Shown here one piece after another: positions 8,243-62,912 of a DNA stretch of 64,000 nt; position 1 is the stretch's first letter; every line of letters starts with the position of its first letter. The notes under the pieces were generated by a model that saw only the letters and a list, made by a program, of their open reading frames with translations, made no database searches and had not been told where the DNA came from. Source of the stretch: Amoebophrya sp. A120. Taxonomy: Eukaryota > Protista > Dinoflagellata. Location: positions 6,105,985 through 6,169,984 of the forward strand of contig CAJINV010000003.1 in NCBI GenBank assembly GCA_905178155.1, written 5' to 3'. The position numbers and the translations under genes were made by a program.

Positions 8243-11200
8243 TTAGATGTTTTGAAGCGCCAGCAGACTGGATGCCACCTTCTTGCCTGCGTTTCGCACC
8301 TTATTCCGAGTCGACTTTCCAGTATCCTGCTCTCCGCCAGCACCGCTTGGGCTTAATGGTTCCGAGGGAAGAGTCGACGTGATACCTTTCTCACCCCATG
8401 AGGTCACACACCCTCGCGGAACCAGCAAGCCAACGCGCGGATGCAAGTCAATTACTTCCTGGAGCATGGCCTGCGCTACACTATCGACCTTGAAGCTTTC
8501 CCGGACCAAGTTGCGGACGGAGGTACGAAGTGACTGTTTGATAAACATTTGAATTTTTTCAAGTATGTAGTTTCAATGACTTTCTTCTGCGGATTTTTTC
8601 GTGAGTGCAGCAGCAGCTGTACACAGTACTATACTTCTGACCCCTTTGATGACATAAAACAGCCCAAGAATACAGATCGCGAACAAGAAAAGTACATACT
8701 TACAAAACGAAAAAGCAACGTACGTCCTCAATGTCCTGACAGTGGTGATCGACTTGCTTCACTGTGGCCTCCGTGTCCGTGACGAGCTGCTTCATTTCAT
8801 TTGATCTTTGCTCCTGGTAATCGACTTCCGAATCGAGGTGTTTCTTGCACTCCAGCATGAGATGCCGCGCGAACCTGGGCTCCACGTTAAACTGCTGTTC
8901 CAAATCTAGGACGTCGATGCGCATCCGCAGTCGCTGTCTCTCCCGCTCGGCCTTGGACATTTTCTCTTCGTCCTGGAAAATCATTTTCGCTAGCACCGCC
9001 GCGTCCGCCAAGCTCATCTTCTTGCTCGCGAGCGAGCCACTCATCATGGTCGCGTCCTTCTCCTTGTTCTTCGCGGCGATGGCCACCATGGCGTCGGTGA
9101 CGGTTCTCTCTGCTTTTGCGGTGGCTCCCGGGTCGCGGTCGGGTTCGTCGTCCTTCTTCTTTGTCTCCGCCCCGCCGGGCTTTTTCTCCGCTTCCTCGTC
9201 CCGCTGCCGTTTTCTTCTTGTGCGGGGGGATTCCTGCGTGGCTGCGCTATCTTGTTTGCTCTCGTACGCGGCCCGTTGTGCGAGTCGCGTCTCCGTTCGC
9301 TGCGCCAACACTGTCTTACGACCGTAGGCGAGAGCCTCTCCCGATTCGGTGCAGAAGTCCTCGTAAATCTCCTCGACGCTCTTCACGCCCTTGAAAAGCT
9401 TCTCCATCTCGCTGTTCAGAATCCCGAGCTGCAGATACGCACGCCGCTGCAACAGCCAGTCCACGTTCCAGTTCAGCTCCCCTATGAACTCACCCGCTTG
9501 CGCAAAAACACCTGTAGTACAATATTGGTTTGGGGAATTAATTCTCGCACTCTCCGAAAATTAGTTTCATCTTCTGGCGTTTTCTGCATCCGCAAGGTTG
9601 TCGAGGCCTGAATTATCGTAAATAAACACAAACAGCACATAGCGACAGCCGCTCCACAACTAGCAGCGCAACATGAGCCACAAGGCCGCAGGACCTGGCG
9701 GATCGACTGATGACATAATTGACACGTCGGCTGTAAAAACAGTTAACAGACTACTTCTACCTTTTGCGTCTCCGACCCGCGACTTGAGTTCTGCGTAATG
9801 ATCGAAGATGAGCGCAATGAGCAGGTTGAGCAGAATAAAGGTCATGATAATCATGAAGCTCCAGAACCAAAGCGTCGCGGTGATCGGACTCAAATCAAAC
9901 ATCTCGTTGAAGTCGAACTCGCCTAGGATCGCCAGAAAGGAGGTGTTCACAGCCTTCGATGTCGTGGACCAGTCCTCCAATAAACTCCCGAACAGGGCAT
10001 GGCCGCCGAGCGCGTAGGAAACGAAGACGACGAAAAAGATGAGCAGGTAATGTACCATGTCCACCACACTGAGGTAGAGCGCGGATGACAGTACCGCGAG
10101 CCGGGGCTGTCCCTGGAAGGCCTTGAAGAAACGCATCATCAGGATCAGCGTGTACCAAAACAGCAGATTGTACTGGATCCTGTGCGGTTTAATGACTTTT
10201 GGTTTTGTCTCCTGAAACAGAAACATCATCGTCCCTCATATAAAAAGCTTATTTGGAACATTAAAATTACCCTTTGGTTACACATCTATCAACAAAAAAT
10301 GCACAGCACACTTTGCGGTAAAAGGAGCTGCAAAAAAGGTTGTGAACAATACCATTGCTGGTCGGCCAAATCTTATCCCACGAAAAAACTGTTTCACTGT
10401 GATGATTTTGCAAAATCCGCATCACAAGTTTGTTTACACATGACACTGAAAATTTGTCATGCGCGCTTCCCAAGGGAAAACGCGCTTGAAAATCCAATGC
10501 CTTGCAGGTGTAGCAACACAAATCGTTCTGTGTTGCATTTTCTGCATCACAAGTTCAGTGAAGCAGTTTTTTTTTGCGATAAATCTTGGATTTTGTCGAT
10601 GATCTGTCCCCACTGGTCGTGGTAGCTTTCGATGCTGCTGGTTGCCTATCAAGTGTAAAAGTGTCTGGGTCTGGAAGAGTGCGCGACTTGTCATGCAGCT
10701 TTTCCATGACCCATGAGGTCTGGAATACAGGACCTAGCATGACACATTCTGCGCGATCTCCATCTCTCTCATGCCTATCCTGCATGAGAAACTCCCTCCC
10801 GACTTGGTCAAAACTGGACGACTTTTGCGAGTCATTCGTTCGTTGTGGATCGGCTCTGCCGACCGGGTAACCCATCGCCTCACATACAAATGACCGACAT
10901 AGGCGAACCCCGTTGCGGGACATACAAACTGGCCGCACGGAAGGGCCCTAAGCGCTACATACATAGTCCACCCTAAGCGCCTACCACTTCGGTCGGGACT
11001 GCGTCTACCTGGTCCTGGGGGTCTACAGCGCACTAGCCCTTTGCGAATCATGCAACACAGATTTTTGCATGCTTCAGATTTCGCATGACAAGTTGCATTC
11101 TTCCAGACCCAGACATTTTTACATTTGATATTGCCACAAAGTTGCCGTCCGCGTCAATCTGTGACGGAGTGGCGGGTAGCGCCGCGATTTCCTCTGCCAG

Positions 11201-14164
11201 CACCCCCTGCTTCGATACCATGTCGAGCCAGAGTGCGCCCATGACGATCCCCAAGGTGATCGTGCACCAGTCCAGAAAGTTCCACTTGTCTCGCAGGTAG
11301 TCGAGCAGATAGCTGTTTCTTCGCGCCTTCAGCACTTCGAACAGCTCTTGCTGAAACAGCATGAAAATCATGCTCATCCAGATGATGTCCGGGAGGTAGT
11401 AGGCGAAGTTCGGATACAGGTTGGCGGAAGTGGCAGCAACCTGGATCGACTTCTGCATGTACCCGCCGTCCTCGAAGGTGAAGCGAACCTTCAGGTTGGC
11501 GAACAGGCGCACCTGCGCGTTGAAGAAGGCCGCCTGGAACTCCAGCCACTCGGTGTTCTCGTCGATCCAGCGGTTCGGCACCAGCAAATGCTCCACCTCC
11601 TCCAGTGCGCCGCCTGCCGCGGACAGGCGGCGCCCGACGTCGAAGTAGGCCTCGAAGATCCCGCTCTTCCCCGCAACGGGCTGAAAGGGGAGGTTGCGCG
11701 CAGTGGTGCCGGGCCCGTACGCCTCGGTGAGGGGAATCTCGGACCGGCACTGCATGTCGTACCAGGCGTTCAAATCCGTGTTCACTGGGCACCCCGAGGA
11801 TTTGAGTTTTTGTTGCTGCAAACGCACGCCGCCAATCAGCTGGTTGAACAGCATCAAACGTCCGGGTCGGTCGGAGGCGGCCTTCGGGGGTGGGTTCCCG
11901 GCCAAGACCGAAGCAAGCTCCACATCCTGGAACGTCAGCTGGTTTTCGCGCCATATTACCTTGATGGCAAAAGATACGTTCATCTTGTTCACAGTGTCAA
12001 TCTCATTCTTCAATACACTCTGAAGCGGCGACATCGCGGTTCGCGTATTTTTCACCGCGTTCCGCCGAATCTTGCGCAAATGGAGCAAAGTAAAAAGAAG
12101 AGCATGCCTTCCACTTCGTGTTTTTGGGTTTGCGTTTGCGTTTGGCTATCATGGCGCAAAGAGTAATATAAGAAAAATACTGGTAGGAGGCCGTGCTGTA
12201 GCCAAAACCAAGAGTCGGCGACTGAAATGACTTGGTCCCACGTGGTGATGTTTAGTGTGAGCTTGCTCGCATCCCCAATCTCGTTCAGCTTGTCTTGTAT
12301 CCTGAGTAAAAACGTACGCACGCCAGAGTTGTAATGCAGATTTGCAAAGACAGGAAGACTTGTAATGCGCATCACCATGAGAGCCATTTCCAATCGTGTT
12401 TTGGCATTTGTGATGCTGTGAACAGGATGAGCCGATGAATCTGTGATGCGGCTGCACTTGCTAACCTGCACTACACTGCAGAGTGCAACTTGTCATGCGT
12501 GACTCACAAAACTCCTAGGTTTGTGTTGCAAAATCCCCATCCTGACTCTGGTGTGGGTACGTTTTTCCTCTCAATATCTTGAAATATTTGTTCCCTGGTG
12601 CTTTGCATGGCGAATTCGGTGTAGGTTTGTCCGTCAACCATACCGGCGATTCGATGCACGGATACTTGTTGATCTTGGTCCAGAAATGCGAATTGAGACA
12701 TATCAAGGGCAGACTCGCAGCCCCGCAGCTTCGCCACGCCGCGGTCGAGCGCCTCCCGAGGCTGGCAGTTGCAATCGCAGTGCATTTGCACTACCTGTGG
12801 AGGACGATTTCAAACGCAGTATGAGTGACAACACGCATACTGGTAGTAGTTGTATCAAGCAGTAGTTCTAGTTGTACAAATTTTCAATACGCATTATTTT
12901 TGCTTCTAAATCAATTATGAGCTTCTACTTCTCAAAGTGGTACCGTCTCTTGCGTGGATCCTTCGATGGCGGGCGCGTTCCCTAGTGAATATCAGATGCA
13001 AAAAATATGTCATGGTCTGGAAGAGTACAAGGCTTGTGACGCACCAGCTTTTTTTTGTATATTCATGAAGCAGCTTTATCTAGTATCATGACCCAGAAGC
13101 AGAAGGTTTGGAATGTTGCGAGCCGTGGCATCACAAGTTGAGAGGATCCCCGACCCCGATGCCTATCCTGTACGAGAAATCTCGTCTCCAAGTGACCCAC
13201 AGCCAGTGGGTGGCTTTTGCTACTCATTCAATACAGATTTTCATTTTTGTGTCGCTGTCGACCTCGTCTAGCATTAATACAGACGCGGCGTTTATTTCCA
13301 GAGCCAGACGACATATTTGCAATGCATAGTAAAGGGTGTGCGACAATTCCAGAGACGGAGTCAGCGAGCGTGCGTTTCACCGAGAAGGTTTGCTCGACGT
13401 CGCCATGAAGCTGCACCAAGAGCACAAATGTCATCCACATTGCCAAGGTAAAGGGTATACCGCCTCCAGCTTCCAGAAACCACAGATAGGCATTTAAGAA
13501 CCTGTTTGTTCCGGGCAGTTTCTTCTTGTTTTGCTGAAAAAATGGCCGAGCTCCAAAAAAAAAGGCAGTTTGGTAGTACTTGCAAAGATTCAGCACAGCT
13601 GCTTAGTCCTGCCCATGGCTTACAAAAACGCGTTCATCCGGTTCCGGTAAGCAAGTCTCTAGGAGGCAAAAACAAAAAGCAAACCTTCAATGAGCAAATT
13701 TACGCAAACTTTGATTTTCAATCATTTTACGTGGAAACAAATTGTCTAGCAGTATACGAGAGCATCTCGCCCTTGCTCACGGAAACTCTCTCCGCCTCCT
13801 TTTCGCGCTTGCGGTACTGCTTGCCTCGAAGCCAAGGCAAGGTCCAATAAGGATGTGCGGCCAACTGCGTTCGGTCGCGGTCAATGTCTTCACTGCTGCC
13901 ACCCCAGGACGAATCGTCTTCATCACTGAGGTGTCCCTCGTCGAAACTTTCCTCGTCCTCATCATCACCTGGCGACCCAGTCGGTGATTTACCATTGCTG
14001 GGACTGGATCCCCCGAAGGTCTCGTCGAGCGGCACACTACCGGGCAGCGTCGCGGGATTCTCTCCCTCCCCGCCGACGGGCGATGCTGCACCGTCGTCAC
14101 CCGGCTCATCGGCGGCGGTTTCTGCCTCGGGATCCACTTTTTTCGCTCTTGAAAAAAGACCCAT
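8243..14164 (-). CDS. Polycystin-2/TRPP-like cation channel, single 6TM domain, 11 exons
   Basis: TOP-domain motifs NQLIGGVRLQQ and NRWIDENTEWLEFQAAFFN, S3 DKWNFLDW, S4-S5 MRFFKAFQGQPRL, pore FLAILGEFDF, S6 FILLNLLIALI. Six GT-AG introns (8534-8723, 9512-9760, 10180-10352, 11960-12180, 12795-12943, 13502-13730) plus four TIR elements; all joins are in frame. Confidence 0.88.
10374..10581. mobile_element. Introner-like TIR element IE1 (208 bp, family B)
   Basis: Ends TATCCCACGAAAAAACTG...CAGTTTTTTTTTGCGATA; TSD AATCT at 10369-10373 and 10582-10586. Removal gives DKIQD-LADQQW in frame. Confidence 0.92.
10647..11130. mobile_element. Introner-like TIR element IE2 (484 bp, family A)
   Basis: TIR TATCAAGTGTAAAAGTGTCTGGGTCTGGAAGAGTGC / GCATTCTTCCAGACCCAGACATTTTTACATTTGATA; TSD TTGCC at 10642-10646 and 11131-11135. 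Removal gives DGNFVA-TSSIESYHDQW. Confidence 0.93.
12298..12576. mobile_element. Introner-like TIR element IE3 (279 bp)
   Basis: TIR TATCCTGAGTAAAAACGTACGCACGCCAGAGT / ACTCTGGTGTGGGTACGTTTTTCCTCTCAATA; TSD TCTTG at 12293-12297 and 12577-12581. Removal gives EQIFQ-DKLNEIG. Confidence 0.92.
12990..13328. mobile_element. Introner-like TIR element IE4 (339 bp, diverged family A)
   Basis: Ends TATCAGATGCAAAAAATATGTCATGGTCTGGAA / TTCCAGAGCCAGACGACATATTTGCAATGCATA; degenerate TSD GTGAA (12985-12989) and GTAAA (13329-13333). Removal gives IVAHP(L/S)LGNAPAIEG in frame with the next canonical intron. Confidence 0.85.
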
Positions 14165-14302
14165 TTTGTTCGGAAGACCCTTGATATTCGCTCGCAGCCG
14201 TCCACTTCCCACCGAGATGAAGAACGGCGAACGATTTATGACACCCTTTCGCCTGAAGGAAGAACTTGTTTTCCCTCGCAGCGAAAGTCGAAGATGCCCG
14301 GC

Positions 14303-16196
14303 TCAGGCGGTTGCTGGTGTCTGGTGGTGGGTAGCTTCAAATTCATGATGGAGGTATCGGCAGTCTGACCGGTAGAAGGAGTGGTCTGCGTCCCAGTGGC
14401 GGCGATAACCTTCTGGGATTGAACAAAGAACAGACGATCTGTAGCCACAGGCGGATAACCAGAACGAGAACAGGATGGAATACACTTATAATGTCTTTAC
14501 TTTTGGTCACTTCAAATTCAAAAAAAGCACCTTTACTCTTCTTCCGAAATATTCTAGGCTGCTCTCGGCAGGCGCTACACGCTAAGGAAATAAAGGGAAA
14601 AGGACATGTTATAGGCTTTTGATAGGGTCCTGAATCATAACCATATCGATACATATTACACACGGACAACATGCGCCACCAAAAATGATGAAAGTGAAGT
14701 TTCTAAGTAGCGATGATCCTGCCACTTTCGAATTGTCGAGCCTACCTCAGTCGATAGTACCATTCACGAACAAAGCGATAGATTCTCTCTCCAACACTCT
14801 AGGTCGATTTCTCGAGGACTCTCACCCTCCATTATTTTCGCGCAGGAAGACGAAGATCATGCAGACACTGTCGCTGTACTTTTAACGGTCTTTGCATAAA
14901 GCGCGATTGCGACAAAACCCATTCATCATTCTCATTGTCATTGGCTGTCTACCGAAATAACAATCATCATGTCTTAAGCACCGGACTGGACGAGACTCGA
15001 AGTAAACAGCGCGCTATTGCGGTTGACTTTATCTCAACATAAAAGATGTCGACTTTTCTTTGTGTAGGTTCGTGGCGCAACAACGGTCGTGTGCGAGTTG
15101 CGTCATGGTTTTTGGATTTGTTTTTGTGTATACAAGTATTGACAACAAACGCAGGACTACAACTGTTCTAACGAAAATAGTTATTTTTGGATGAGTTTCT
15201 TAGATATTGATATTGTCTTTATGTCCACTTGTACTTTTACTTTTTGATATTCATGCCTTTGGTGCTGCCCACGCTTTATCGTCTTCGTATCACTCCACCT
15301 GCAGATACCTCTGAATCTTCATGCTCACAAACCCTACGTGTAAAAATAAGGCCGCGTTTCTTCCGGCGTAAGACAAGTAGATGACTATCATACATTGGTG
15401 GCCCTATTCATAATAGCGATTTGCGGTTAAGAAAAAGGAAAACTTTTGGAGCCTTACTCGGCGTCAACAACGTCGAGCAAGGTGTTGAACGTGCGAGGCT
15501 GGGCCATTCCATCAGCATAAATTTTGACATTGACAGGCTAACGGAAAATTATACAGTGGAAAAAGAGTTACTTTTCTTTTATCTTTGCGCAAGCGCAAGG
15601 AAAAGAATGATCAACGTCATCTATTTCAACACGGCTCTGCACCGCACTTACGAGCAGTTTCTCGAGGACGAAGCATTCGTCAGTATATTATGATACAAAT
15701 AAGGCTGAGCGGGTTCTTCTTCGCAGTTGTATAGTAAAGTATGTAGAAGTCCTGCTACTCGCGTTCTTTAGATTTGGTGATTATCATGTGTCGTTCTGAC
15801 GGCTATGCTGAACACAATCGTCCGAGCGCACACGTCAACACTATCCACACGGTGCTCGTCTGTGCTCTACTTTTTACGGAGATGAACTACCGCGGATAAT
15901 AGAGACGACATTGAAACACGAGATTCTAACTCTTCATGATCAACTATAAAAAAATCAATACATCATACGAAGTATAAGTAAGTAAATGTCACTACAGGGC
16001 AACTCTCGTTCAAACCAAAAATCACGTTGCCGGGGGCGCGAATTATAGCGACCAAGAATGTGTCAGAGCTGATCTTCTTCATCGCCGGATCCAAATTTAC
16101 ATCAACCGTCGAGAAATAAACGTACAAATGGAAAAAATGGTGCCACTTGTTAGGAGCGTTTGCGTTCACCACGTTCTTTTGCGAAATCGCAACCAA
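14303..16196 (-). CDS. Possible multi-exon hypothetical gene
   Basis: Short exon-like segments end in GTAAG/GTAGG donors, e.g. DECFVLEKLL (~15650), PVNVKIYADGMAQPRTFNTLLDVVDA (~15460-15540), GERIYRFVREWYYRL (~14750). Not assembled and no family recognised. Confidence 0.3.
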
Positions 16197-23972: not shown

Positions 23973-26900
23973 CTAAAGCACAATATTCGTGTTTCCTGTT
24001 TGCTGAAGCATGGCTGCGGTGCTGTTTTTCATCATCCCGTTTTTCTGCTGCGACTGAGCGAAGGCAACACTTGCACTCCGCGCTCGACGAATATCCTTCT
24101 GTACCTGCGCTTCCTGATCTCGTTGCTGTCCAGCCGTTGCCTGCTGGGTCGCCGTGGTCAATTCCGAGATCGAATTCAGATCCAGTCTCGAGCTGCTGCC
24201 CCGACGGCCGCTTGGACTAGCAGAGAGCGGTGGCTGATCGTCCTGGTGTTCCGACACCAGGAGATCCTTTTCTTCTGAAGTGGAACTCCCACTAATCGCC
24301 TTGCTCATCATCTGCTGCGGCTCGAGAGAGTCGCGTCGCTGTAATCGCGAACGTTGCTCTACTTGTTGGAGGTCGCCCGGAGCAGCTTGACTGCTGGTGC
24401 TCTCCCCCTTCGTGGAAGAGCGTCGCTTGCGACTACTTTTGAATGCAGCTGCAGCGCCTGCTGTGGCCGCAGTGTGATCGCTGTACGAAGGTGATGTGGC
24501 CTTGAATGTATTGTCCTCCGAAACTAGCTGCTCAGCGGCCGCGCGGCTGCTCAACTGCTCCGTGATGCGCGTTGCCAGATGAGTGAGCAGGTCATTCTTT
24601 GATAAGCGGCGACTCTTCGAAGAGCTGGTGCTTTTGGAGGTCTGCTGCACGTCTACCGCGCCGTGCTGCTGCTCCTGATGTGCTATGCCGCCCTGCGACA
24701 GTAGATGATCGGATGCGAGCACCACATTATTCTGCCGGTTGCTGAACGATCGCTGGGATATTAAACCCTGATCGTCCCTGCTGTTATTCGCTTTGCTCTG
24801 CATGATATCGTTGATAGCTTCCAACATTTGACTGGAGACGGTTGTCGTGGAGCATCTACGAAATGGAAGATGATTTGGTGAGCAATTAGACGGGGACGAA
24901 GACACCGCGCCGGCGCCAGGGCTGTCGCCACCGACAGCGTCTGTGGTCTGGTGCAAATTAAACCCCGCGTTGTTGGCAGAGGTGGGTGTCGGGTTGCAGG
25001 AGGAAATCAGCTCTGCTAGCGCTTCGAGCACCCCAGCCGATTCCGTGGAACTTCTGCGTAGCTTCTTCTGTTCCACCCCCGAGAGCCGCCGCGACGTATT
25101 CGCCGAGGAGGAGGAAGAAGATTTGTTCTGCGCATGGGTCCCGCGCTCCTCTTGCTTTCCGGGAGAACCGGAGCGGCTCGAAGAGGTCGACGATTTGGAT
25201 TTCCTTCGATTTCGCTGCACGACAACGTCGACGCGGGTCGTGGAGTTATCATTTCCTTGTTCCTGCTGGTGCTCCAACCCCGGTTCTTCGTTTTCGTCCC
25301 CACCGGTACTTAAAGCAGCAGCAAGGTCCTGCGAGCTTCGGCGTGAGGTCCTTTGGCTGGGCTTTCTCGAGGTCCGTTGGCTCTGCTCTCGCGAAGTTTC
25401 GTCCTGCGCCGCCCGTCGGCTGCTCCGGGTTGTTCTTGACTGGTAGATTTCAGAAGCCACACCGTACGTGTACGACACGCTTTTGCTGCTGTCTGCGGCT
25501 CCTGGGGCTAGCAAGTGGTCACCACTGCTCTTCATGGTTGCTGCATCACCGCGACTCGGAGTCGTGTTGCTCCGTCCAACGACGAATTCTTGCAGCAGCG
25601 CTAGATCTGGAACCTCCACGCGGGCAGTACTGCGGCGCGCAAGCACCTTTGCCGCGTCAATCTTTTTTGGCAGATTTACTTCGAGGATGCGGTGCTGAGG
25701 CACAGGCACTTTATCATTCTCATTGCTCACGTCTCCAAGATCGGTTTTATCGGCTGCGATCGACGTGGTCTGAGCGGCAATTGAAACATGATTCTGGTCC
25801 TCATCCTCGCTCGCAAGACAGGATGCCACGGGAATTGAAACGGCCTGACTGGTCCCGCTCTCCGATGGTGCCGGAAGCAGAAACGGACTAGACAAGAATC
25901 TGTTTGAAGTGTGTTTCTGCATTTCTGCCGAGGCGGTACTGGATATTTCCCCCGAAAGCAAACGGGGAGGAGACTCCATGATCGGCACGGGCAGCGCGCG
26001 TTCCCCATGATCCACCCCCGTTTCAGTTACCTGCTGATGGCGCTCCAGACCAAAATCTCGGTGAAGCTGCCCGTCAGCGCTTTTCTCGGTCGTAGAAGAA
26101 AAAGCAATCGACGCACCTGAAGTAGAGTTCTTCTGCGTTAAAATCTTCCCTGTGACTGAGCAAGAATCGGGTTGGCGACGATCTTCCTGGGGTTCCATTT
26201 TTCGACCCTCTTCGTGCTCTTCGATACTACCGACTTGCTCCCGCGGCGCTGGTAGGTGCTGACGAGCAGCTTCATCCCGTGGGCCGATGTGTTGGAGCTG
26301 GTGGTTCCTCGAGCTTCCATGTCTCGTCGAATCGACAGGAGTTGCAACGTCTGCAGGACGACGTGCAGCAGTCTCTTCCCTTTTTTCTCCTTCGTTCTCC
26401 GCGGCGTCAGGCTCTATTTCGCCTGCTTCAGTTTTTACCGAGTCGCGCAACACGATGACACTGCCTGTGCCAAGTGCGTTTTGGCTCGCTGCTGTTTTGA
26501 ATCCGTTTCCAAAACTAATGTGCCTTTGAATGATTCGCAACACGGACTCAAATGCACGCAGATCGTAGTAGTTCAGGCGGTGGACGAACGTCTGGAACTT
26601 GTCCTTCGACAGCGTCCCCAGAATCGCGCTGTTCGTCTCTATCCAGTTTTTCGCAAGGTGGTCAGCCTTTTGCCTTTCGCGTCGCTCGGTGTACGTCAGT
26701 CGCGGCTTGCTTGCCACTTTTTTGCTGCTTTTCCGTCTGGACCTTCGGTGGTCCGACTCTCGCTTGTTACCTTCTGCGCCGGCTTTGTCGCCGATAGCGC
26801 TTGTTCCGCGCCAGCCTTTGGTTCTTTCCTCGTCGCTCGAGGCCGAGGAGGAATCCTCGGTGTCCGTGAACAATGCTTCGTCGCGGCGCAGAATGCTTCT

Positions 26901-33093: not shown

Positions 33094-34351
33094 TCACGAG
33101 TAGGAATATTCCGCCTTGTTATGGAGAATAAGCTCTTCCCCAACGAAATAGAAGCTGTCAGATCGCGTCTCCCATGGGTTGCTGATGATGACCTTTTTCA
33201 ACTCCTCGTCCAGAACTTCTGGCATGCTGTATATAATCTCCCAGGTATTTACGCTGTCAGGAATGCAGAAGGGCATCGTGAAGTCGTAGCTCTTTATGCA
33301 CCTGTTGTGATTGCGTTATCTTTGGATGTTGAAGAGATAAAGAAAAACATTTGCATTTGATCAATCATGAATACTTACTGAGCTGCACAATTCTACTCTG
33401 GCATCGAGTTGATGACTGCGAAAGCAAGGGGGCGCCAGCGCGTCGCGAAGGTACGACACATCCTGGCACAAACCGCAACATAAAACTGCTTCATTCGCAT
33501 GCCGCCTCCCGTATTGTAACATTACTCAAAAACCGTAGTTGTACTAAGACTAACTATTATACTCGTTCTTGAAATAGTGGCGTTCTATCATCCGAAAATT
33601 TCGCACTTCCTTGCTGCAACGAAATTTCAGTTCCGTTCCAATGGTCTTGAGGTCCAGAAACTTCGGGCCAAAATGGTAGCGCACACGGCGTACGTCGTCC
33701 GGGTCCTCTGGTGGTGGTGTTGCTGTATCCCACCGAAAAGCAAGCCCATACCAAAAACAAATGAATTTGCCAAAAAAAAATGCTGCTTTCATCATTTTTG
33801 ATTTTTTTTCTAGTTCTTGGCTCTCCCGCATGACAAATTTTTTGGGCACCTTTGTCACCTGGCACGCAAAACATACAGATACAGTGCATTCCCGATTTGA
33901 TTTTGTGACACAAAAAAAGCAACACAAATTTACGTAATCTGGTATGATGGGTGTCCTCACTTTTCTCGAGGATATGGTGCTGCAGCTGGCGCATTTTCTA
34001 AATCCGCAGCGACGTCGAAATGAGTCGTGCTCTCGCCGGTTTCCTGTGTGGAAGTATGATCACAAACACAATCTCTATTAATCCTCGCCACGAGCTGCCG
34101 GCTGAGGCTGAGTTGCGTAAGAGCAAAGATACTACTGCGGATACACGAGAATGATCGTTGTCAGATTACTGCGCAGTACTGTAGTTCTAGTTTGCCTCGT
34201 CGGCCACAGATGTGAATAGTACCTCGTCGATGCTCCTTATCTTGAACGCCAGAAATTCCACCCCGTAGTGATTCGCGTCGAGGTCACAGAGAAATTCGTC
34301 GCAGGGCCCTGCGAGCTGTGCAACATACTCAGGTGTTATCGGAATCATCAT
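33094..34351 (-). CDS. UNC119: UNC-119 (PDE-delta family lipidated-cargo carrier)
   Basis: Assembled exons: ITPEYVAQLAGPCDEFLCDLDANHYGVEFLAFKIRSID; VRYHFGPKFLDLKTIG...NFRMIERHYFK; KSYDFTMPFCIPDSVNTWEIIY...NPWETRSDSFYFVGEELILHNKAEYSYS. GT-AG introns 34044-34222 and 33302-33562, plus IE5. Confidence 0.95.
33726..33974. mobile_element. Introner-like TIR element IE5 (249 bp) in UNC119
   Basis: Ends TATCCCACCGAAAAGCAAGCCCATACCA / TGGTATGATGGGTGTCCTCACTTTTCTCGAGGATA; TSD TGCTG (33721-33725) and TGGTG (33975-33979). Removal gives ENAPAAA(P/A)TPPPEDPDD. The nearby GT and AG would splice out of frame. Confidence 0.87.
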
Positions 34352-35228: not shown

Positions 35229-37697
35229 TCACGCTTGCTTCAGTTTCGCTGGTCCTGGCCGAGATGCGGCGGTGGCCTGCAGATACACCGAGAGAATTAC
35301 CAAGCCGACGGCACCCACCAGAGGCTGAGACGGGTACCTCCCTTGCAGCATCACGTTCAGAACCGCCGTCAGCACGATGCCGCATACGATGGTGAAGCCC
35401 TTCGCGACGCCGCCGACGTACTTGGTCACCTAAAAAGTATCGCAAGAAAAAACTGTTTCAGTGTGAACTTGTGATGCAGAAAATGGGACACAGAACTATT
35501 TGTCTTGCTACACCTGCAAGACACTGGATTTGCAAGCGTGTTTTCCCTTGGGAAGCGCGCATGACAAATTTTGAGTGTCATGTGTAACTAATTTGTGATG
35601 CAGATCTTGCAAAGTCATCACAGTGAAACAGTTTTTTCGTGGGATAAAAAGGAACGCATACATAATACGATAAACATAAATCATAGTGCTACAACTAGAT
35701 GCCGATTTATTAGCTTTCAATTTTTGGACTCATCTACTTCTCGCATATTATGTGTAAGCTAAGCATACCCGCCTCGTCCATGATACCAGCGGCGCTTTGT
35801 AGCTCCTGCAATACGACTTTCTGAGTAGTAAGTAGGTACCTGTCCAACCACGATCCCACCAGACGCTTGCAACAGCAGCGGCACGCAGCTTAGTAGCTCC
35901 GGAATGTGCACGGTTTTGGATTATCGACTGCGAATATGTCTGGGTCTGGAAAAGAGCAGCTACTTACCCCCTCTGATGCTTGTTGTTTCGCATTCCTGCA
36001 ATTGCAAAATCTGTGCTGCATCACCAAAAAAGTCGTGGCGCAATGATCCACCAGGTTTCCAGACCCAGACATATTTTCATTTGCACTGGATATGGATGGA
36101 AATAGCGCCATTCTGTCTTGTGGAGGCAGCCAGAGCAGGTCGTAGGCGTACACTCCGAGGATTTGTAAAGCCGTCAGCGAAAAAGTCGCACACGACAGCT
36201 CCAGCGAGAACAGATACGCGTTCTTCTTGCCTTGTGGTGCAGGACTGGGAGTAGAAGATGTCGAATCACTTGTTCCTGTGGTTGTGCTTATCTCCTTCGG
36301 TCTACTTGCAGCTCTACTGCTCGTCGCCGAAGCACTCGCTTCTGAAGCAGTGCCAGCAGCAGTTTTTCGTGTCTTGCTTCGATTTTCTCCTGGAGTGCGA
36401 TTCCGGTCTCGACTTGTCTTCGCATTGGATTGCAACTTGTAAACTGTTGTTCCCGGTGACGTAGTTGAGGGTCCTGTCACGGAATTATTCCTGTCGCTGT
36501 GCATCTCCTTCTCGGAGTCTTGGCTCGATGTGGCAGCTGCGCTCCCTGCCGTTGTGCCCTGCAGCTTGGAGGTTTCTGCATCAGTCTTGCTTTCGTGGTC
36601 TGTGCCTGCTTCGGTCGTGGCGTCGCTTCTGCCATCTTTATTGTAGTTGTTCCCTGAAAACAACTTTTTCGGTTGAGTGCTCACCGAGGATTTCGAGGTC
36701 AGCAACATGGACCGTTCGCACATTGCAGAGCCAAAGCCCGACAAAAATGCAGCGCCGAGGGCATATACGAATCCGAGCGTAAATACTCCAAGCTCAGCGT
36801 CCCGTGGGTTCGGCGTCGACGAGCCGGCTTCCGTAAGCCTAAGAAGGACGACGGCACAGAAAAGCAGCAGAACGGCGACCTAAGTGTTGCGAATTCTACT
36901 AAATTCATTTTCTTATTCCTTCTGCTTCTAGGTCCAACGAAGCACGTCTTGCACCTCATCATCTACATCACTTCATTTACGTACGAGACACTGAGCTTGA
37001 CACAAACACCATAAGCTGCGCCAATAGCTTTATGCAAAAGCTAGTAGATGTAGAATACGAAAAATCTACAATACCATTTCTCGGGCGTTTGTTCGGCGGC
37101 CAAGGATGAAATACGTAAAAAAGACGGTAAATGCCACTTTTGTCGGGTTGAGTAGATTTGACACGACCGGATCCAGGCTGAGCATAGCGAGGTAAATGAA
37201 TATGTTCTGCAGGCTGTAGCTTACGCTGGGAATGAAAGCGGGCACCACTGACGTTTCCCACGACAGCGAGCGCATGCTGGATTTGAACTTCCCGATAACG
37301 GCGAGTCCCGCAAGCGAAAAAAAAATTTTGGAACCCTCGGTCAACAGAACCATCACGCGTGGATTCACCACAGGGTCGCGGCGGGCGTAATCTGGGCATG
37401 GTTTATTCCTTCGTTTCTCTTTCTTGCCGCTGCCAACAATGACCAATGTTGCGTATTACGATCAGATCAAGGTCGAAACACAGATCACGTGCCCAGCAAA
37501 GAATATGACTTTTTTTCATTCTCTTTAGTACTCACAGCGCGTCGCACAGAGATCTTTGACTTACCTCCCGAGAGGTGCTGTGTGACGATTGGTTGCACCG
37601 CGAACTGAAACATAAGCAGGACCATCCATGGCAAACCGCGGGCGTAGTCATACTGCAACGCCGACGTGTTTGCGACCGGCTTCAGCGGACTCAACAT
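35229..37697 (-). CDS. Nucleotide-sugar transporter, SLC35A (UDP-Gal/CMP-Sia transporter) family
   Basis: Motifs AFIPSVSYSLQN, LLNPTKVAFTVFF, FLSGFGSAMCE and, after removing IE7 and intron 35430-35839, LLQASGGIVVGQVTKYVGGVAKGF. Start codon approximate. Confidence 0.88.
35438..35646. mobile_element. TIR element IE6 (209 bp, family B) nested in a canonical intron
   Basis: Ends TATCGC...GTGGGATA; TSD AAAAG at 35433-35437 and 35647-35651. Aligns end to end with the reverse complement of IE1. Confidence 0.93.
35922..36092. mobile_element. Introner-like TIR element IE7 (171 bp, family A)
   Basis: TIR TATCGACTGCGAATATGTCTGGGTCTGGAAA / TTTCCAGACCCAGACATATTTTCATTTGCACTGGATA; TSD TGGAT at 35917-35921 and 36093-36097. 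Removal restores MALFPS-KTVHIPELLSCVPLLLQASGG. Confidence 0.93.
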
Positions 37698-39182
37698 GCT
37701 TGTGTGAGGACAACCGGCGTGCTCCCCCGGCACAGGTTCCTTTGGACAGCACGTTTCCACTTTGGTATCAAATACTACTCCACGACGTTTCAGACCGCAT
37801 TTATTCTTTCCCCGGTTCACTCATTTTCCATGTCGTGTGCATTGTAGCAAGCGAAAAAGAGGAACAAGAGATGGTGCAAACGATCGTTAGCTGGTAATAG
37901 CGAGGTCATGTCTGTTTCTGTCACAGCGCAGCAAGAGTTTGCGAACAGGGCGCCCAGAAGATTGATGCGGAGGAGCAACGTAGTTTGTATTCTGAAAGTA
38001 AAAGCCTACCTGAGTAAATCAAACAAACTCTGTACAGAGTGACTGAGTATTGAAGAAGTAGAATTCAAAAAAAATGAAAAGTGCGTCTGGATGACGTGAT
38101 CTACTTCGAGAATAAACTCAGAAACCCGAAAAGGCCGACGTCGAATGTTGCGTCTTAATTATGAGTCCGTGCATTTGTAATGATCCAGAAATGTCATCGA
38201 CTGAAAAAAATGCAAATGGCATCCAAAGAAAAATTTTCAAAGGAGTACTCGCCGAATCGGTATACAAGAAAGCGGAAGGAAGCTGAAGAGCTCGGATCGG
38301 TTCTTCCAGTACCAGTACCAGTTCCACTTTCTTCAGCAAAGAGAAATCAGTCGGGTGCTCGCTTCTTCAGGCGAGCGAGTAGCTGTAGCTGTTTAAACGT
38401 GCTATCTGTAAATAGCTGGCGAGCGAGTAGTGTTTCAACTTATCACCGCCAGAGCTTGACGAAGCACCACCCTGCTTAGCTGTGAACGGCCAAACTCGGG
38501 GAGTTGCCGAGAAGAAGGAAGGCCGAGCCCTTCAATCAGCCCCGGCTTAAGAAAGGCGCAATATTGCCACCCCTACTTCCATACCGCACTAATCAACCTC
38601 CGCACAACCACAAGGTTCCAAACAAGCCTCCTCTGCTTGCCCTTCCTTGCGTCAAAGCAGGCGCCTAAGAAAAGGCAGGTCCTAAGCAAGACTTCTCTTC
38701 TTGCCCTTCCTGCCTACACCACTTCCGGAGCCGGAACTCTAGTAGCGACACGCAAACGCCACCAGGAAACACAGGAAAGCACGGAGTTATGCCCTGCATC
38801 GCCCAGTTGCCTCCCTAAAAGCCGTCAACCTACCCTGCTGCTCCGCCGTTCCTCTGTTGTGGCCGTGCGGCTCTTGTTGACCCAAGAACGACAAACCCAC
38901 CGACTGATAGACGCTGGCGAGGGACATCATTTTTACGGTCTCGCTTGTTTATTCTTGGTTGCAGCAAGCACAGAAAAAATTTCCTTCGTTCCGTTCTTCG
39001 TTCGGATTCACGACCACGACGTTGTCATCACCGGCCTATACGCTAGCGTCACGTACCTACGCGTAGTCGACGCACCTCGTCGTCGGCTTAGAAGATTTAG
39101 ATTTACACATATATAACAACCAAGATCTGCGTAAATAAAATTCCATGATTGAGTTGAAGTGTGGTTTCAAACTCATTGCCAT

Positions 39183-46462: not shown

Positions 46463-47654
46463 TGACGAGCAGGAGGAGGAGACCGTAGAACGGTACTATG
46501 GCCGCTCCTGTGGTCAATGCAGCGCGGTACACAGTGGCGTCCCCTTCCGCACCTCCTTCGGTCAGGCAACCAAACCCAAATCGCTTTTCTCGGTCATGAT
46601 CCCAGGTTCCTCCGTAGCACTCGAATCTGTTCGCCTAAGTACGACCTACTAGCACACACGCGTACAACGAGATCGGAATCCATGACGCGATAGATAATAT
46701 GTAGAGTTGTCAACTGGCTATTTATGTTCCTTAGTACACAAATCGACGCGGGGACAGCATGTTCGTTGACCTGTCACAACGACCATGACGAATAAACACG
46801 AAAAACAGCGCACACTGAAAAATTGCCCTTCGATCAACATACGTCTCGCAAAAGAGGAGCTAAATTGAAGGTAGATATATTCTTTCAGTGTGAGATAAGT
46901 CAGTGCGTCGATACTATCTTAGCTTATACGCAACCTACTGCAGCTGGACCCGCAAAGAGAAATACGCTCGCACCAGATAGCACCGTTAATATCGTGATCG
47001 CGCTCGAAAGATACTACTTGTATGTTTCATACACATGAATGTAGTACGTTGAGGTCGAGTTGGACTTTCCATACTCGAATATTTACCTTTCACCACCACT
47101 CGTTTCGACGAACTGCCTCTGGCTTTGCGTTCGGCTAACGTCGTTTGCTAGCTACAACGGAAAAGAACAAAAGTGTAGCAAAACTCCGTCGAACGGAGGC
47201 ATCATGCGAGAGTCGCTGCAGCAGACCCCAGGCTGCAATGACGTGATGCATTGTCGCAACGCGATTTCACTTTGTGAGCATCGATCCATAGTTAAGTGCC
47301 TGCGCCTGTACTAGCCGTGATATGCCTAGGTTTCTCGCGTTGTCGCGCAGATGCAGATCAATTTATTGGTATTGTCCACGCGTTTGCGAAATAAAACAAC
47401 ACGCGCTCGTCTGAGCTAAGAATTCAGCAGATCATGGGCAGTACTAGTAGCACCTGGAAAGGAATGCCATAGCCATACCTACTAGGTCTAGGGGCAATAC
47501 GTACATAGAAAACTGGTCAACATCAAGCGAGTGTTGATGTTGGGAAAAGAAAACGAGACGGAGAGCGTTAATCTGTACCTCGTGGGGAAGAGGAAAACAC
47601 CGCCGGGGGAAATACACTGGCGGCAATTCCAACGCGCTCCGTCCATGGCTCGCT

Positions 47655-50600
47655 TCACTCATCTTTTGCAACCGTATTTGAGCCCACAGCTAGACTGAGC
47701 TCCAGAAGCCGACTGTATTCTCCTTGTAGTTTTTCTAGCTGAGCTTTGCGCGCAAGCTTTCGCTCTTCCTGCACTTCGATGTATTGTGCCAGGATGTTTT
47801 GGTTCTGCTGCGCTTCCTGAAGCTGGGGCAGCACGTCGTCGATGTACCTGTCGAGCAGGTTGGATACCTCGAGCAGATCGCTTGCAACCTGCCCCATCAT
47901 ATTTTGCTCCTTCTCTTTCACTTCATAGGCCGTCAGGAGCCCGGTCGGGTCCGCTCCCGCCCCGCCACCCGCGGCTTCATCGGTCGAGGTTCCATGCATA
48001 TCACCGAGGATCAACGTGCTTGTCTCCAGAGCCCAGTCTCGCCACTCCTGCGGGAGGAGAAGCCAGTACGGTGTGACTTCGTTCTTGATACTTTCTTCCT
48101 TGATCGCACGCGACATCATCCGTCGCGAGGCCGCACTCTTCCCGCCCGGGGACTTGTTGGACCGCTGATGATGCCCCCGTCCGGAGGTCGGAGACGGGGG
48201 TTTGTGTGGACGAGCGACGGTGGAAGCAGACGCAGCGCTTTGGTCCAGTTCTACTCTGGGGAGGTCCGCATTAACATCATCGAGGTCGAACCCCTCCCCC
48301 GCGGCCCCTCCGCTGTGGAGGTGCCCCCCCGTTCCCAAAGGGTCCAGGAGCTCCCGGGTATATTCCTTGTCGAAGTGCTGGAAATTCTTATCCATCACGG
48401 CAAAGAACACGTTCATGAGCAGGTAGTAGAAAAGCATTAGGAAGGGAAAGAAGAACACCGGGGCCATGGTGGGATCGGCGGCGGAGAGCAGCGAAAACGC
48501 GTAGTTGCCAAGAATCATCTCGTAAACCTCCAGCAATCCGTCGGACAAATTGGAGAACTCCTTGTGGTACCGCCCGAAAAACAGGTTCCCCGCGAGCACG
48601 AAGCCCCAGAAGATGACGAAGAAAAGCAGGAAAAACCAACTGATGTCCTTGAAACCCCCCGCGAGACTCTGAAAGATGACCGTCATGCGGCCGGCGGTTC
48701 GGAAGAATTTCAGAAGCCGGAAAAAGATGAAGACCACGTTCAGCGCAGCCGTGGCTACGAAGAGGTCCTGCTTCTTGGCCGCCTGAAAGAAAGCCGCCAT
48801 CACCTCGGCGTCGCTGCACCACCACCCGCTTTGGATGTCGCAGCCCTCCCAGGTGGGGTTTTCGTACTGCACGTACTGGGCAAGGAACGCATCGCTGGAG
48901 AACCGCATCCACAGCAGGATCGACGTGATGCTCAAGATGTAGGAAACGAGGTCCACGGTGTTGAAGAGGTCCATGCAGAAATGGTGGAGAAACGCCTGCA
49001 GCCCTGCTTTGAGATACTCAGTAATGCTGAGCCTAATCCCGTGAGTCGGATCCACTTCGGCAGCTGCTGCCTCGGCAAATTGTGGCGGTTTCGAAGATGT
49101 GGCCCCCCCATCTTCGTGCTCATCTTGCAATTTCACCAACTGGGGCTTGGGCGGCGCAACCGGAACGAAATTCGCGGGGTCGTCAAGGAGTCCCTCGTCG
49201 AACAGCTTTTCTGCGAGCAGCCGGTTCTTCTTCTCGACGAACTCAGCGTGCACCTCTACGCCCTCCTCGATTATGTAGTACGCCAGGTACACGAGATAGA
49301 TCATTTCGAGGAGGACCCGAATCACGTTGGCTGTTTTGTCAAACGTGTAGTACTGCACGGGAAGGGACTTCAGCGTGATGCGCTTCTCCACGCCGCCGCC
49401 GGGGGGAAAGGTGAAGCCGACAATGGCCAGGCTGAAAATCTGCAGCTGCGCGTTGAATACGAGAAATTCCACGACCAGGTTCGCCGTTTGCGCCGAGACG
49501 TAGTTCAGTTCCTCCATCTGTCGGGTGTCCCTGTCAAACAAACGCGCGTGCACACTGAGGCTGCGCACGAATGCGGACTGCTCGTTGAAGCCGGTCGTGA
49601 AATTGCCGAGCACCAGTCGCTGCCTCACGTCCACGACGTCCGCATATCAAAAGGAAAAACTCCCCCTCCCCATATCAAAACGAAGTTTCTGATGCTGGAT
49701 TTGCGTACACAAATCAGATTTGTCCTGCTGGAGAGGACTGCAGGCCTATACTAAGCCTGAGTAGAGAGGTTTTCTGCTAGGCGCTAAGCATGGCAAACGC
49801 CTAGGCTGTAGGGCCAACAGCATCACAAACCGCCTGCAGAATGTGGCGTAGCCTGTGTAGTTTCGGTCCTGCAAGACAGAGATGATTTGAGGGCACAAAT
49901 GAGCATTACAAATTTCCTGAGACGTGCCTTTTCGATATGGGGAGGGGGGATTTTTGCTTACGATACCGCAGCTTTTTTCACCTGGTCCGCGAATACATCC
50001 TCGGCCTGCACCGACAGGTCGCGGACCGTGCTAGTGCGCTGGTACAGCAAATCGCTGGGTAGTAGAGCGGCTGAAGTTGTTGATGTACTAGAAGAACTAC
50101 TCGCAGCACTTGCGCTTGCGGTAAGGTAGGGTGTTGCCTCCATGGGAAAAAGTCTCTGCGTGAGCCGGACAGGCTTTTGCCCCAAGACCACGTTCCAGTT
50201 GCGAATCACCAACTGCTTGCAGCCCCTCTCCCCGGGCTCGTTGCCTTCGCAAATGCCATCAATAGAGGTGTGATATCGGTCCAGGAACTTCGACGCGCTC
50301 GAAAGGTCGTCGCCGGGCAGCGACTCGCTGGACTCGAAGAGCGCGTACCGCAAGCCGGTGCGCAACCAGCGCAGGACGTCCGCGCGCGATTCGATACCGT
50401 CGAAAGTCGCGTACCGCTGCCCCGAGGTTGAGGACGGAAACGTGGCGTACCGCAACGCGTCCTTGATGGGCTCGCCGGCGTGAAAGGTGTCGCTCCGCTG
50501 CAGCTGCAGGTAGAGGATCACAAAGTAGAACACGACAAACAGTGCGTACAGCACTTTCGTTGTCAATCCATCCTCCTGCGGCTCCTCCTCCTCATCCTTC

Positions 50601-53600
50601 TCTTCGACGCCAAAGCCCAGGAACCGCTTAGCCTTGTCCGCCGCTGCGTGCACATTCGTGTGTGCCCTCAAAAAGACCGCCGACTTCCACCGGTTGAACT
50701 TGTCCTGCGCGCCAACCTCGCTCTCGTCGTCGTCGTCCTCCTCCCCCTGTTCCCCGGAACTCAGGTCGGACTGTCGTTTGAGCGCCTCGCGGGCCTCGGC
50801 GTCGTTGACGGCGTCGACGTTATGGATTGCAAATATGTCTGGGTCTGGAAGAGCACAACTTTGTCATGCACATTTTCCACGATCCATGATGTCTGTGATG
50901 TATGCCATAGCGTTACAGATTTTTTGGGCGCTGGCTTATCTATGCGCACCCAGCATGACAAATGCCCTCTCCGCGTGGTAGCCAAATTAATCTTTAGCAT
51001 CCAAATGCAGCATCACAAGTTTGGCTCTTCCAGACCCAGACATTTTTGCATTTGATGCACATACGCCGCGTTCAAAATCGCGTTATTCAAGTTGACGAGA
51101 ATGAAGTAGAAGAGAAGCATGAAGATGAGAAAAAATATCCTCGATCGCACCGGGTACTCCACGATGAGCAGATCGTACACGTCCACCTTCCCGCCCATCA
51201 TCTCGAACAGGGACACAAACGCGTCGCTCTGCGTGCCAAACTCCGTCAACCGGCTGCCGAACTGGATGTTCGAGAAGTTGACGAAGCCGAGGAACAAAAT
51301 CGTGCAAAAAAGCGTGAAGCACACGAGCGCGGTGGCCGACCGGGCAACCATGTCAATCAGGATGCGGACGCGGACGGAGGCGATCCGCAGGTAGGAGAGT
51401 AAGTTCACGTATTGGAAGAAGAACGCCAGCCCAGCGATGCGCTGGAACAACAGAAAGCTCGCCGCTTGCTTCTCGAACTTCTCCATCATGGCACTGAAGC
51501 CCGCGGCGTTCAGCGCATCAGTGGTCCCGGTGGCTACGGCGCTGCTCTGCTCGAAGGCGTTCAGGTCCGGGAGCGCCGAGTCCTGACTCTGGTAGGAGAT
51601 CCAGACGGTGTGCACGACGTAAAACAACACGATGTTGAGCAGCATCAGGTAATTCCAAACCGTCCACTTTTGGTTTCCTCCGCCGAACAGGACACGGACC
51701 GTCCACAGAATCAGCACCGCCAGGGTCATTTTGTCGTCCGCCTGGTACATACCGAGACCAATGTCCGTCGCGACGCTCTCGGCGTTGCCCGTGAGGTCCA
51801 GCGTGTCGAGCTGGTACTCGCAACTCACGCTCCCGGCGACGTTGAAGGTGAAGATCAGCTGCACCCAGGTGTGCAGCCGCAAATTCGGATTGTAACTTAC
51901 GAAGTCCACCGCAACCGTGCTGGTGTAGCGATCGATGAACTTATGAAGAGTGCACAGCAACCCCTGTGGCCCCTCATACATTGGTGCCATGCTACTTAAG
52001 AAAAGACTGCGCAGTCGAGTCAGGGGGTGCTATTTCGGTGTGTCATGTTGGGAAACTAAGGGCAGGGCGTCCCTTTGTAAAACAAAACTACAAACATGAA
52101 ACCGCATACCCGGTAAACTCTAAAACAGAAAATTGAACAACGCGATTTCTACCGAGAGACAACAACAGAAACTCCTGGGACGGCTGCGACGTGAGTTCTG
52201 TTGTTATCTGAGTAGGAATAGCTCTGTGCAATGATCGTGTCTTAGCACCGAGGGAACAGAAATAAAAAGTAAAAAAGCGTGAAGCAGCTAACTATGACAC
52301 AGTCCCACCTACTGAAAAAACCATCCTAAAGGTGGTATCTGGAATTTCTAGCAGGGAAAAACTTAGTGGTTTGGAAAATGGGGTTGCGATCGTGGTGCCA
52401 ACGTATTTCGGTGTGTCATGCAAAAATCTCTGCTCTGGTGTTGGTTGCGTCGTTGCTCATGCCTTTCAGATGAGGAGGCGAGGGCGACTTATGGCTGCAC
52501 TCGGATAGAACTGCCCGTCCTTCACGACCTCTTTGAGGACAAGCGCAAGCTGTTCTACCGCTGGCGTCTCACTGCTGGACCGTTGCGTCACCTCCACCAG
52601 TTGCACAAAGGCAAGCTGCTTCTTGCTCCCGTAGGGTAAAACCGCGTGCGACGTGCTGCGGTGAAACTGGTTCAAACTCGGCAGAAAGATGGTTCGTCCA
52701 TTGCTGACCAACGTCGGCGGCACCAGTTCCGAGGCATAGTTCGGCATCGTTGGGTAATACGGCGCGGAAAGCGTCAGGTCGTCTTTGCTGTAGGACCGAA
52801 ACTTGCAGTAGGAACAGACGTCGGAACCGGCGTTGGCGCAGTCTGACGGCACCAGCAGGCACCCGCAGTCGTACAGCCCGCACAAGCGCTTGCACGTATC
52901 CAGCGTCTCCCCGACCACCACGTGCGCTAGCTCCTTGCCCCCGATGCAGACCTTGTTCGGGAAGATGTTGAACTGCAGCTCCTGTTTGCCCGCATCACCG
53001 AACGAGGAACGGCGCCAACTGCGGTAGGCGCCGTAGTGCGTCAGATCGTCGAACTCCTCGGTTTCGTCGTGCACTGAGACCCCGGCCATGCTGCCCCAGA
53101 CCTCGGGCGCTAGAAGCTTGAAGTCCTTGTCTTCATTGGCCACCATCTTCATGCGTCGCGTCGATATTCGCAGGGGCGTGAGCACGCGGTTCGCGGCGCT
53201 GGGAGCCGTGACGGCTTTCGGGAGCGCTTCGGTGAAGAACGCCTCGACGTCCTCCAGGCTCTGTATGTTTTCCCATCGCCGCGAGAAGTATCCCCAGAAA
53301 AAAACCCATCCATATCCATTTTATGCATGACAAACAGTGGATTTTATTCTTATGCATGTTTTGCATGACAAATTGGATGTGGATGGGTGTTTTTTCCTGG
53401 ATAAGAAGCCGTGTTGGTCTACGTAGGTTGCGGCCTTGATAGATGTAGACCAGACCCGGTTCACCTCGTACGCGTCGCCTGTCCGGACGCGATTACTCAC
53501 ATAGTACAAGGGCCAGATCAAAAACGTGAGAACGTACAGAAGAAACTCAAACCCCGATAATCGCGCTGCTGCGTCCTGTTGTATGAAAGTTTGCCGCGCG

Positions 53601-62379: not shown

Positions 62380-62704
62380 AGGCAGCTGCGCCGCCAACTA
62401 GACGGGCCCGGCTCGCCATCCCTCTTCGCAGAGTTCGCGCAGCAACCATAGGGGCCCACATGAGGCCGGTCGGAATCGGCCACGCATCGCGTTGCCCGAG
62501 CCGACTGCGTGCGACGCATGTTGCTGGGTCGGCCGTCAGCTATAGGGGGCCGGCGCCCAGCTTGACGCCCGCGCTGCGCGCCCGTGTTTCTGCGATTGCG
62601 CGCGCGAGCTCAACCGCAGAAGCATCTCACGGCCGCGATTTCTAATTTTTCGCGAGGTTTATGTTTGTCGTCGACAAACACAAATCTCGGGAAAGTTGGA
62701 GGCC

Positions 62705-62912
62705 CTCAACTCGTAAGTGCGCCCACCACTAGAGAAAATTTGTGTGGAGCGCACTTACGAGTTGAGAAAAGTGCAGCACACCATCGGGGGTGCGATTGAA
62801 ATGCTGCATTTTTCTCAACTCGTAAGTGCGCTCCACACAAATTGTCGAGAGCGCAGCGAGAAATTTCGCAACTTTTTCCAGAGCAAATCCAGAAAAGGTT
62901 GCGAAATTTCTC
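62705..62912. repeat. Cluster of long inverted repeats (hairpins)
   Basis: 42-bp arms at 62737-62778 and 62802-62843 (one mismatch); 21-bp arms at 62858-62878 and 62892-62912 (one mismatch); an extra 18-bp arm copy at 62705-62722. Confidence 0.92.

Follow-up and report, generated by a model that had tools for sequence, protein, structure and literature searches.

A 64,000-nucleotide stretch of the genome of the dinoflagellate Amoebophrya sp. A120 (contig CAJINV010000003.1, positions 6,105,985 to 6,169,984; hereafter the window) carries eleven short elements with terminal inverted repeats (TIRs), most of which contain the 9-mer GCATSACAA or its reverse complement TTGTSATGC. We find that this 9-mer is a conserved, repeated and orientation-independent word in many families of non-autonomous TIR transposons, the introners. 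It probably acts as a subterminal docking site on double-stranded DNA for one shared transposition protein, rather than as an RNA splice signal. This DNA-level reading is favoured because the copies are helically spaced and are conserved independently of strand; since no binding protein has been identified, it is only by inference that the sites are assigned to transposase binding.

The word in the window and in an independent sample

A sequence-only reading of the window had listed 18 exact copies in nine of ten elements (IE1 to IE10). All 18 are present, on both strands, with no further exact match in the 64 kb and thus none in its non-element DNA. The ten elements sum to 2,612 bp, in line with the 2.6 kb claimed, and enclose every copy. 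Dinucleotide shuffles of the window gave a mean of 1.27 exact copies and a maximum of 5 (100 shuffles). The copies were said to lie often 30–50 bp inside an end, and 10 of the 18 are indeed 29–45 nt from the nearest one; the one-mismatch copy reported for IE7 is a single one, at 36018. The tally of nine in ten is correct for the elements listed, but an eleventh, IE11, was overlooked, which makes it nine of eleven. The ten had also been called dissimilar. They fall into only about six families, IE1 and IE6 being 92–93% identical in opposite orientation and thus one family, and IE2, IE4, IE7 and IE9 having one TIR in common; between families the description holds, the motif-masked consensuses being mostly no closer to one another than shuffles are, apart from a few weak cases such as F3–F8 (38 vs 21).

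An independent sample was obtained by scanning the JACKZZ01 contigs with the family-B TIR, which gave at least 177 loci, 80 of them with long flanks. The 469 kb of non-redundant sequence may not be from the strain of the window. Elements were called blind to the motif, by TAT…ATA ends, an exact target-site duplication (TSD) and a strong TIR; 274 such candidates were found, and each of six control termini gave 0–1. The set totals 338 elements, of which 288 have an exact motif copy. Because family B was chosen by its TIR, TIR conservation is biased there while motif conservation is not; outside family B, 128 of 173 elements have an exact copy. The elements hold 566 exact copies in 83.7 kb, and the remaining 385.7 kb holds 246, so that the motif is about 10-fold denser inside (6.8 vs 0.64 per kb) and not equally frequent in the surrounding DNA. 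Of the outside copies 40 were viewed, and by eye many adjoin decayed or truncated element ends. The families are repeats in the genome, with 8–183 members.

Over 23 family groups the top 9-mer was GCATGACAA, followed by its overlaps and by GCATCACAA, GCATTACAA and GCAATACAA. The exact motif occurs in at least half of the members of 19 groups, and 16 of the 23 representatives carry it, against a shuffle mean of 0.3 and maximum of 2. The base 5′ of the motif tends to be T, which extends it to TGCATGACA. Refinement by expectation-maximisation drifted to a looser matrix, TGYAWBRCARR, and a fixed broad form, GCAWBACAR, was therefore used from then on; it was derived from the same data to which it was then applied. 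Elements average 3–4 broad sites, and in the window 29 of 32 broad matches lie inside the ten elements. A scan of viral contigs gave 3 matches, none with the motif or an element, which we took as chance, and an Rfam search of the window gave none.

Conservation of the word

At the six core positions of the motif, substitution was 0.03–0.15, compared with 0.16–0.36 at non-CpG interior positions, which is 2–7-fold below the neighbouring interior in all nine families examined (7–132 copies each). The motif thus does not decay at the rate of adjoining element sequence. When all nine positions were counted, substitution was still about 1.7–3.1-fold lower. When 137 disjoint nearest pairs, of which the closest differs by 4.7%, were divided into five bins by divergence, the ratio of core to interior was 0.24–0.48 in every bin. 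With the core conserved and the masked consensuses mostly at shuffle level, the word persists while its surroundings diverge, as the sequence-only reading had proposed for TIRs and interiors alike.

Strong sites have a residual substitution of about 0.035, near the divergence of TSD pairs (0.039), a value that decay of the sites after insertion would predict. Motif change is greater in copies whose TSD has a mismatch (0.061 vs 0.036, p = 0.01), consistent with the same decay. Covariation between left and right TIRs was clear in F2 and F8 only and weak in B and F5, and is confounded by subfamilies.

Spacing and position of the sites

Sites are nearly absent 5–29 nt from the element ends and begin at 30, and inward and outward sites are equally frequent (64 vs 65). 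Sites in the same orientation are mostly 31–33 bp apart. Among same-orientation pairs 9–69 bp apart, 13.3 of 19.8 (family-weighted) fall at 30–33 bp, and in 15 of the 23 groups at least a quarter of the members have a 30–33 bp pair. There were 22 pairs at this spacing, while 3,000 random re-placements gave a mean of 6.9 and a maximum of 13 even for the best of any spacing window. The spacers within the 32-bp pairs are not conserved and are unrelated to each other. Seven same-orientation pairs at 31–33 bp are found in the elements of the window.

Outward end distances cluster at 31–33, 41–43, 62–64 and 73–75 bp and are periodic (R = 0.43 at 10.5 bp, p = 0.002; best-period p = 0.012). Opposite-orientation spacings peak at a period of 10.6 for divergent sites (p = 0.007) and 10.8 for convergent sites (p = 0.002). 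In elements of 484, 834 and 1,104 bp, the sites stay within about 210 bp of an end. Some layouts recur: B, F4 and F6 begin 41</73<, and those of F4 and F6 are identical. The idea that TIR positions 4–12 are themselves a degenerate motif was rejected, being true of only about 15% of family-weighted ends. In the family F1 consensus, positions 4–12 hold an inward motif-like word within the TIR itself.

Strand independence

Exonic copies were predicted by removing the element with one TSD and testing the coding frame, which was restored in 209 of 311 scored elements, compared with 52 and 42 for off-frame controls. The transcribed strand was assigned confidently for 197 elements, with 140 of 143 agreeing within loci. 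Element orientation in exons was random in all nine families. Motif substitution was 0.070 (162/2316) where the RNA reads GCA… and 0.069 (157/2274) where it reads the complement.

Elements of the window and their removal from RNA

The elements are listed below with their exact and broad sites (strand in brackets). The RNA evidence comes from contigs of presumed-RNA runs (one study, two samples), whose RNA status is an automatic guess.

IE1, 10374..10581: family F2, TSD AATCT, within an exon of a minus-strand polycystin-domain gene; exact sites 10419(+), 10454(-), 10544(+), broad sites 10513(+), 10528(-); RNA contigs leave out the element plus 5 nt.
IE2, 10647..11130: family B, its interior lengthened by about 218 nt that lack the motif (10828-11045, missing from other family copies, joint 10827>11046), TSD TTGCC; exact sites 10688(-), 11083(+), broad site 11052(+); RNA joint 10641>11131, a skip of 489 (484+5).
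IE3, 12298..12576: family F3, TSD TCTTG; six broad sites in a single orientation, 12329, 12360, 12408, 12441, 12490 and 12521, forming three pairs with spacings of 31, 33 and 31 bp; RNA joint 12292>12577, a skip of 284.
IE4, 12990..13328: decayed family B, TSD GTGAA/GTAAA; one exact site 13128(+); RNA joint 12982>13327, a skip of 344.
IE5, 33726..33974: singleton family, TSD TGCTG/TGGTG; exact site 33828(+), broad site 33919(+); RNA joint 33720>33975, a skip of 254.
IE6, 35438..35646: family F2, orientation opposite to IE1, TSD AAAAG; exact sites 35469(-), 35559(+), 35593(-), broad site 35500(-); within a canonical intron by sequence inspection, with stops in all three minus-strand frames after removal.
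IE7, 35922..36092: family-B TIR, TSD TGGAT; neither exact nor broad sites, a single 1-mismatch copy; probably removed from RNA, as an RNA contig piece begins at 36093 (one-sided).
IE8, 49645..49965: family F4, TSD CCGCA; exact site 49820(+), broad sites 49871(+) and 49903(+) at a spacing of 32 bp; in an RNA contig 49639 is followed directly by 49966.
IE9, 50821..51057: family B, TSD GACGT/CACAT (2 mismatches), last base changed; exact sites 50861(-), 50953(+), 51010(+); RNA contig joins 50816 to 51059.
IE10, 53289..53403: family F8, TSD AGAAG; exact sites 53325(+), 53363(+); the transcript carries the TTGT form only; RNA contig departs from the genome at 53283 and runs on (one-sided evidence).
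IE11, 51942..52507: F5-like TIR, perfect 5-bp TSD GAACT; neither exact nor broad sites, a single 1-mismatch copy at 52413; in an RNA contig 51936 is followed directly by 52508. Its interior at 52041-52330 is common to five other loci and may be nested or mark a longer family.

The window elements start with TAT, end with ATA (except IE9, in its last base) and are flanked by a 5-bp TSD, exact in eight of eleven. At element ends TAT occupies positions 1–3 by construction, and the fraction of A at positions 11–15 is 0.61–0.77. Inverted repeats that begin with TAT, followed by about 7 variable bases and a run of A, with short direct repeats and non-canonical removal, have been described for the introners of A120 (PMC7789003), and the window elements resemble these in all three respects. 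The lengths of our families (109, 149, 209, 263, 279, 308 and 322 bp) match those given for A120 in the rows covered (22 of 58) of Dataset file 8 of PMC12130899 (106, 149, 208, 260, 278, 305 and 319-322 bp), most of which are labelled ‘TIR DNA, Unknown’. From the fit of these ends and lengths, the elements appear to be A120-type introners.

Precise removal of the element plus 5 nt was seen for eight of the eleven (IE1-5, 8, 9 and 11). The removed elements lack GT-AG ends, and six ordinary GT-AG introns are spliced in the same contigs. The TSD mismatches of IE9, IE4 and IE5 (50816-51062, 12983-13333 and 33721-33979, respectively) suggest that the RNA is cut inside the TSD; if one rule applies, the upstream exon would retain 3–4 nt. 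In the DNA-like run X1, contigs enter the elements, the IE5 joint is missing, and the summed depth over elements is very high. Run X11, which has the same species label and comes from another study, matched one family-B TIR only. A 14-nt micro-exon piece at 10354-10367, between a canonical intron and the IE1 TSD, is kept in RNA contigs of all four runs.

In predicted folds the two ends of the element, taken as its first 30 and last 35 nt, are paired with each other at 21–28 positions in ten of the eleven, and at only 6 in IE11. The motif as a general extension of this hairpin was rejected, as motif-motif pairing occurs in the predicted RNA folds of only 4 of the 11.

Proposed role of the sites

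A spacing of 31–33 bp corresponds to three turns of B-DNA and would place bound protomers on one helical face. The protein, a transposase or a host DNA-binding cofactor, may assemble cooperatively on the sites and bring the element ends together. Only copies with enough in-phase sites would then be re-mobilised, so that the word and its spacing would be retained even as the TIR bodies and the spacers drifted apart into unrelated families. Elements are probably removed from RNA by another process, in which the paired TIRs and the TSD act as guides; IE11 is removed from RNA without an intact site. The sequence-only reading had left open a binding site for the transposase, a removal factor or a guide RNA. 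Helical spacing and strand independence favour the first of these, and at the RNA level the other two are disfavoured.

Several observations weigh against this docking-site reading. No autonomous element or transposase open reading frame (ORF) was found in the 469 kb of loci or in the 64-kb window, where none of 17 ORFs is transposase-like, and three ORFs of the longest element have no Pfam match. PMC7789003 found no transposase in A120 and argues that introners are not mobilised by one. The best period for end distances was 9.25, and same-orientation periodicity was not significant beyond the 30–33 bp peak (p = 0.12; the best period with the peak included was 12.5). The identical layout of F4 and F6 implies that families may share remote ancestry and are not fully independent. 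In the closest pairs the motif is better retained than the TIR. Finally, among 312 exonic or non-exonic copies with at most 2 TSD mismatches, kept from 381 defined by homology, motif decay in old copies was 0.043 in exons and 0.074 elsewhere, with an interaction of age and exon at p = 0.03 one-sided (0.055 two-sided). The longest element, of 1,104 bp (505-1608 of locus L028), has an F6 site array restricted to its left end and short tandem repeats at the other, with no Pfam match.

The age figures bear on another explanation, in which a host DNA-binding factor on the phased sites marks the element on chromatin for co-transcriptional, GT-AG-independent removal from the nascent RNA and possibly also aids transposition. 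Strand independence and helical spacing fit such a mark, broad sites are present in 196 of the 197 predicted exonic copies, and motif decay rises with age proxies in non-exonic copies (rho = 0.22, p = 0.018) and not in exonic ones (rho = 0.04, p = 0.53). However, sites are also present in 67 of the 69 non-exonic copies, and IE11 is precisely removed without a broad one. Conservation confined to exonic copies, which would have backed a splicing role, was not seen: substitution at strong sites was 0.049 against 0.275 for the interior in non-exonic copies, and 0.034 against 0.291 in exonic copies, a difference between the two classes with p = 0.35 when stratified (nominal p = 0.044 unstratified). 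The interaction with age is borderline, is equally present for the TIR and absent in family B alone, and is driven largely by three copies, without which the gap in old copies narrows from 0.074 vs 0.043 to 0.058 vs 0.043. We therefore regard such a removal mark as unlikely. A combined version seems to us similarly doubtful: a single DNA-binding protein would recognise a helically phased ‘address code’ common to the A120-type introner families, license their transposition and, on chromatin, mark them for precise GT-AG-independent removal from nascent RNA in either orientation. If true, the coupled protein would amount to DNA-templated intron definition, and would explain the harmless invasion of exons by many unrelated families.

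It is less probable still that the sites serve a host factor of chromatin or transcription with no part in mobility, such as an ApiAP2-like protein, with the carriers tolerated or amplified indirectly. The DNA-level signature and the T favoured 5′ of the motif would suit such a factor, and a resemblance to TGCATG may point to an ApiAP2-like protein. On the other hand, the sites keep phase with the transposon ends and hardly ever occur 5–29 nt from them, and non-element DNA of the window has no exact copy.

That the word is an RNA splice signal built into both strands, either a branch site of the form T-N-A-C or the target of an altered small nuclear RNA or guide RNA, we consider very improbable. 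Outward sites 31–43 nt from the end do lie at a branch-point-like distance, and the motif core resembles a U-n-A-y branch consensus. Yet substitution is equal on either transcribed strand, and the putative branch A is not better preserved on the RNA strand (0.119 vs 0.108). GCAWBACAR is missing from the RNA strand of 26 of the 197 predicted exonic copies, nothing within 1 mismatch of the motif occurs in the six canonical introns (1,238 bp), and a 32-bp spacing rule is unexpected for single-stranded RNA.

Common ancestry or internal duplication that left a neutral relic, or a composition effect of low mutation, could account for the layouts shared by some families and their weak residual similarity, but this is the least credible account and is largely refuted by the conservation over non-CpG neighbours within families, the unrelated spacers of the 32-bp pairs and the mostly shuffle-level masked consensuses.

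Comparison with known systems

Multiple short sites in both orientations, near the ends and conserved above the neighbouring interior independently of host transcription, are features of transposase-bound subterminal repeats, and all are present here. Lemi1 binds subterminal motifs of the miniature inverted-repeat transposable element (MITE) Emigrant (PMC1636448). As in the subterminal repeats of MITE and hAT systems (Emigrant/Lemi1, Hermes), introners have several short sites, in both orientations, within a few hundred bp of non-autonomous ends. In those systems the transposase binds the sites (PMC1636448, PMC6188088), and in introners binding would follow by analogy. The introners differ in that their TIR bodies are family-specific while the site is shared, in their termini and TSD, and in that the elements double as introns; hAT repeats are also variably spaced (PMC6188088), whereas introner sites favour 31–33 bp.

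Helically phased 9-bp motifs 20–60 bp from the left end nucleate cooperative binding of TnpA in IS1535, of the IS607 family (PMC6188088). The analogy would be mechanistic only, since IS1535 uses a serine recombinase, has no TIR or TSD, and its direct repeats lie at about 10-11 bp (PMC6188088). The IS3EU and GingerRoot DDE transposons share TA..TA termini with introners, but their TSD is usually 6 bp (PMC10045372) and that of introners is 5 bp; a 6-bp scan of the window found none. The nonconventional introns of Euglena are, like introners, removed without GT-AG and have paired ends; their code is a short paired CAG/CTG at fixed boundary positions (PMC12501133), whereas the introner motif is internal, repeated and strand-independent.

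In the text sections of PMC7789003 and PMC12130899 covered, neither an internal cross-family motif nor a spacing rule is reported, and the former detected no family-specific inverted-repeat motif in A120. No description of the motif was found in the parts of the literature searched, including PMC9860276, PMC11282704, PMC12130899 and PMC12787238; the search did not cover figures S14-S25 of PMC7789003, Roy et al. 2023 Curr Biol or deposited consensus files. A full-text search with four 9-mers gave no introner paper among the matches listed, and the 9-mers are missing from 14 supplement files of PMC12130899.

Other features of the window

Minus-strand genes resembling polycystin/PKD and TRP channels form one co-oriented block at 8400-14500, 23976-29564 and 47250-53600. 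Three repeats of other kinds were noted:

About 38260-38930: a repeat without TAT ends or the motif, with depth up about 10-fold and an assembly break in run X1.
About 56500-59000: a perfect 13-bp tandem array of about 2.5 kb with extreme AT skew.
62420-63182: nested inverted repeats with arms of 25, 37 and 45 nt, which lack both TAT ends and the motif and lie immediately upstream of a RAP-domain ORF.

Implications

A shared, spaced and conserved internal word suggests that many families are one system served by one factor. The 32-bp site pair offers a specific bait for that factor, and the motif a handle for finding decayed elements and the autonomous parent. It would also let one ask directly whether a DNA-bound mark and removal are coupled.

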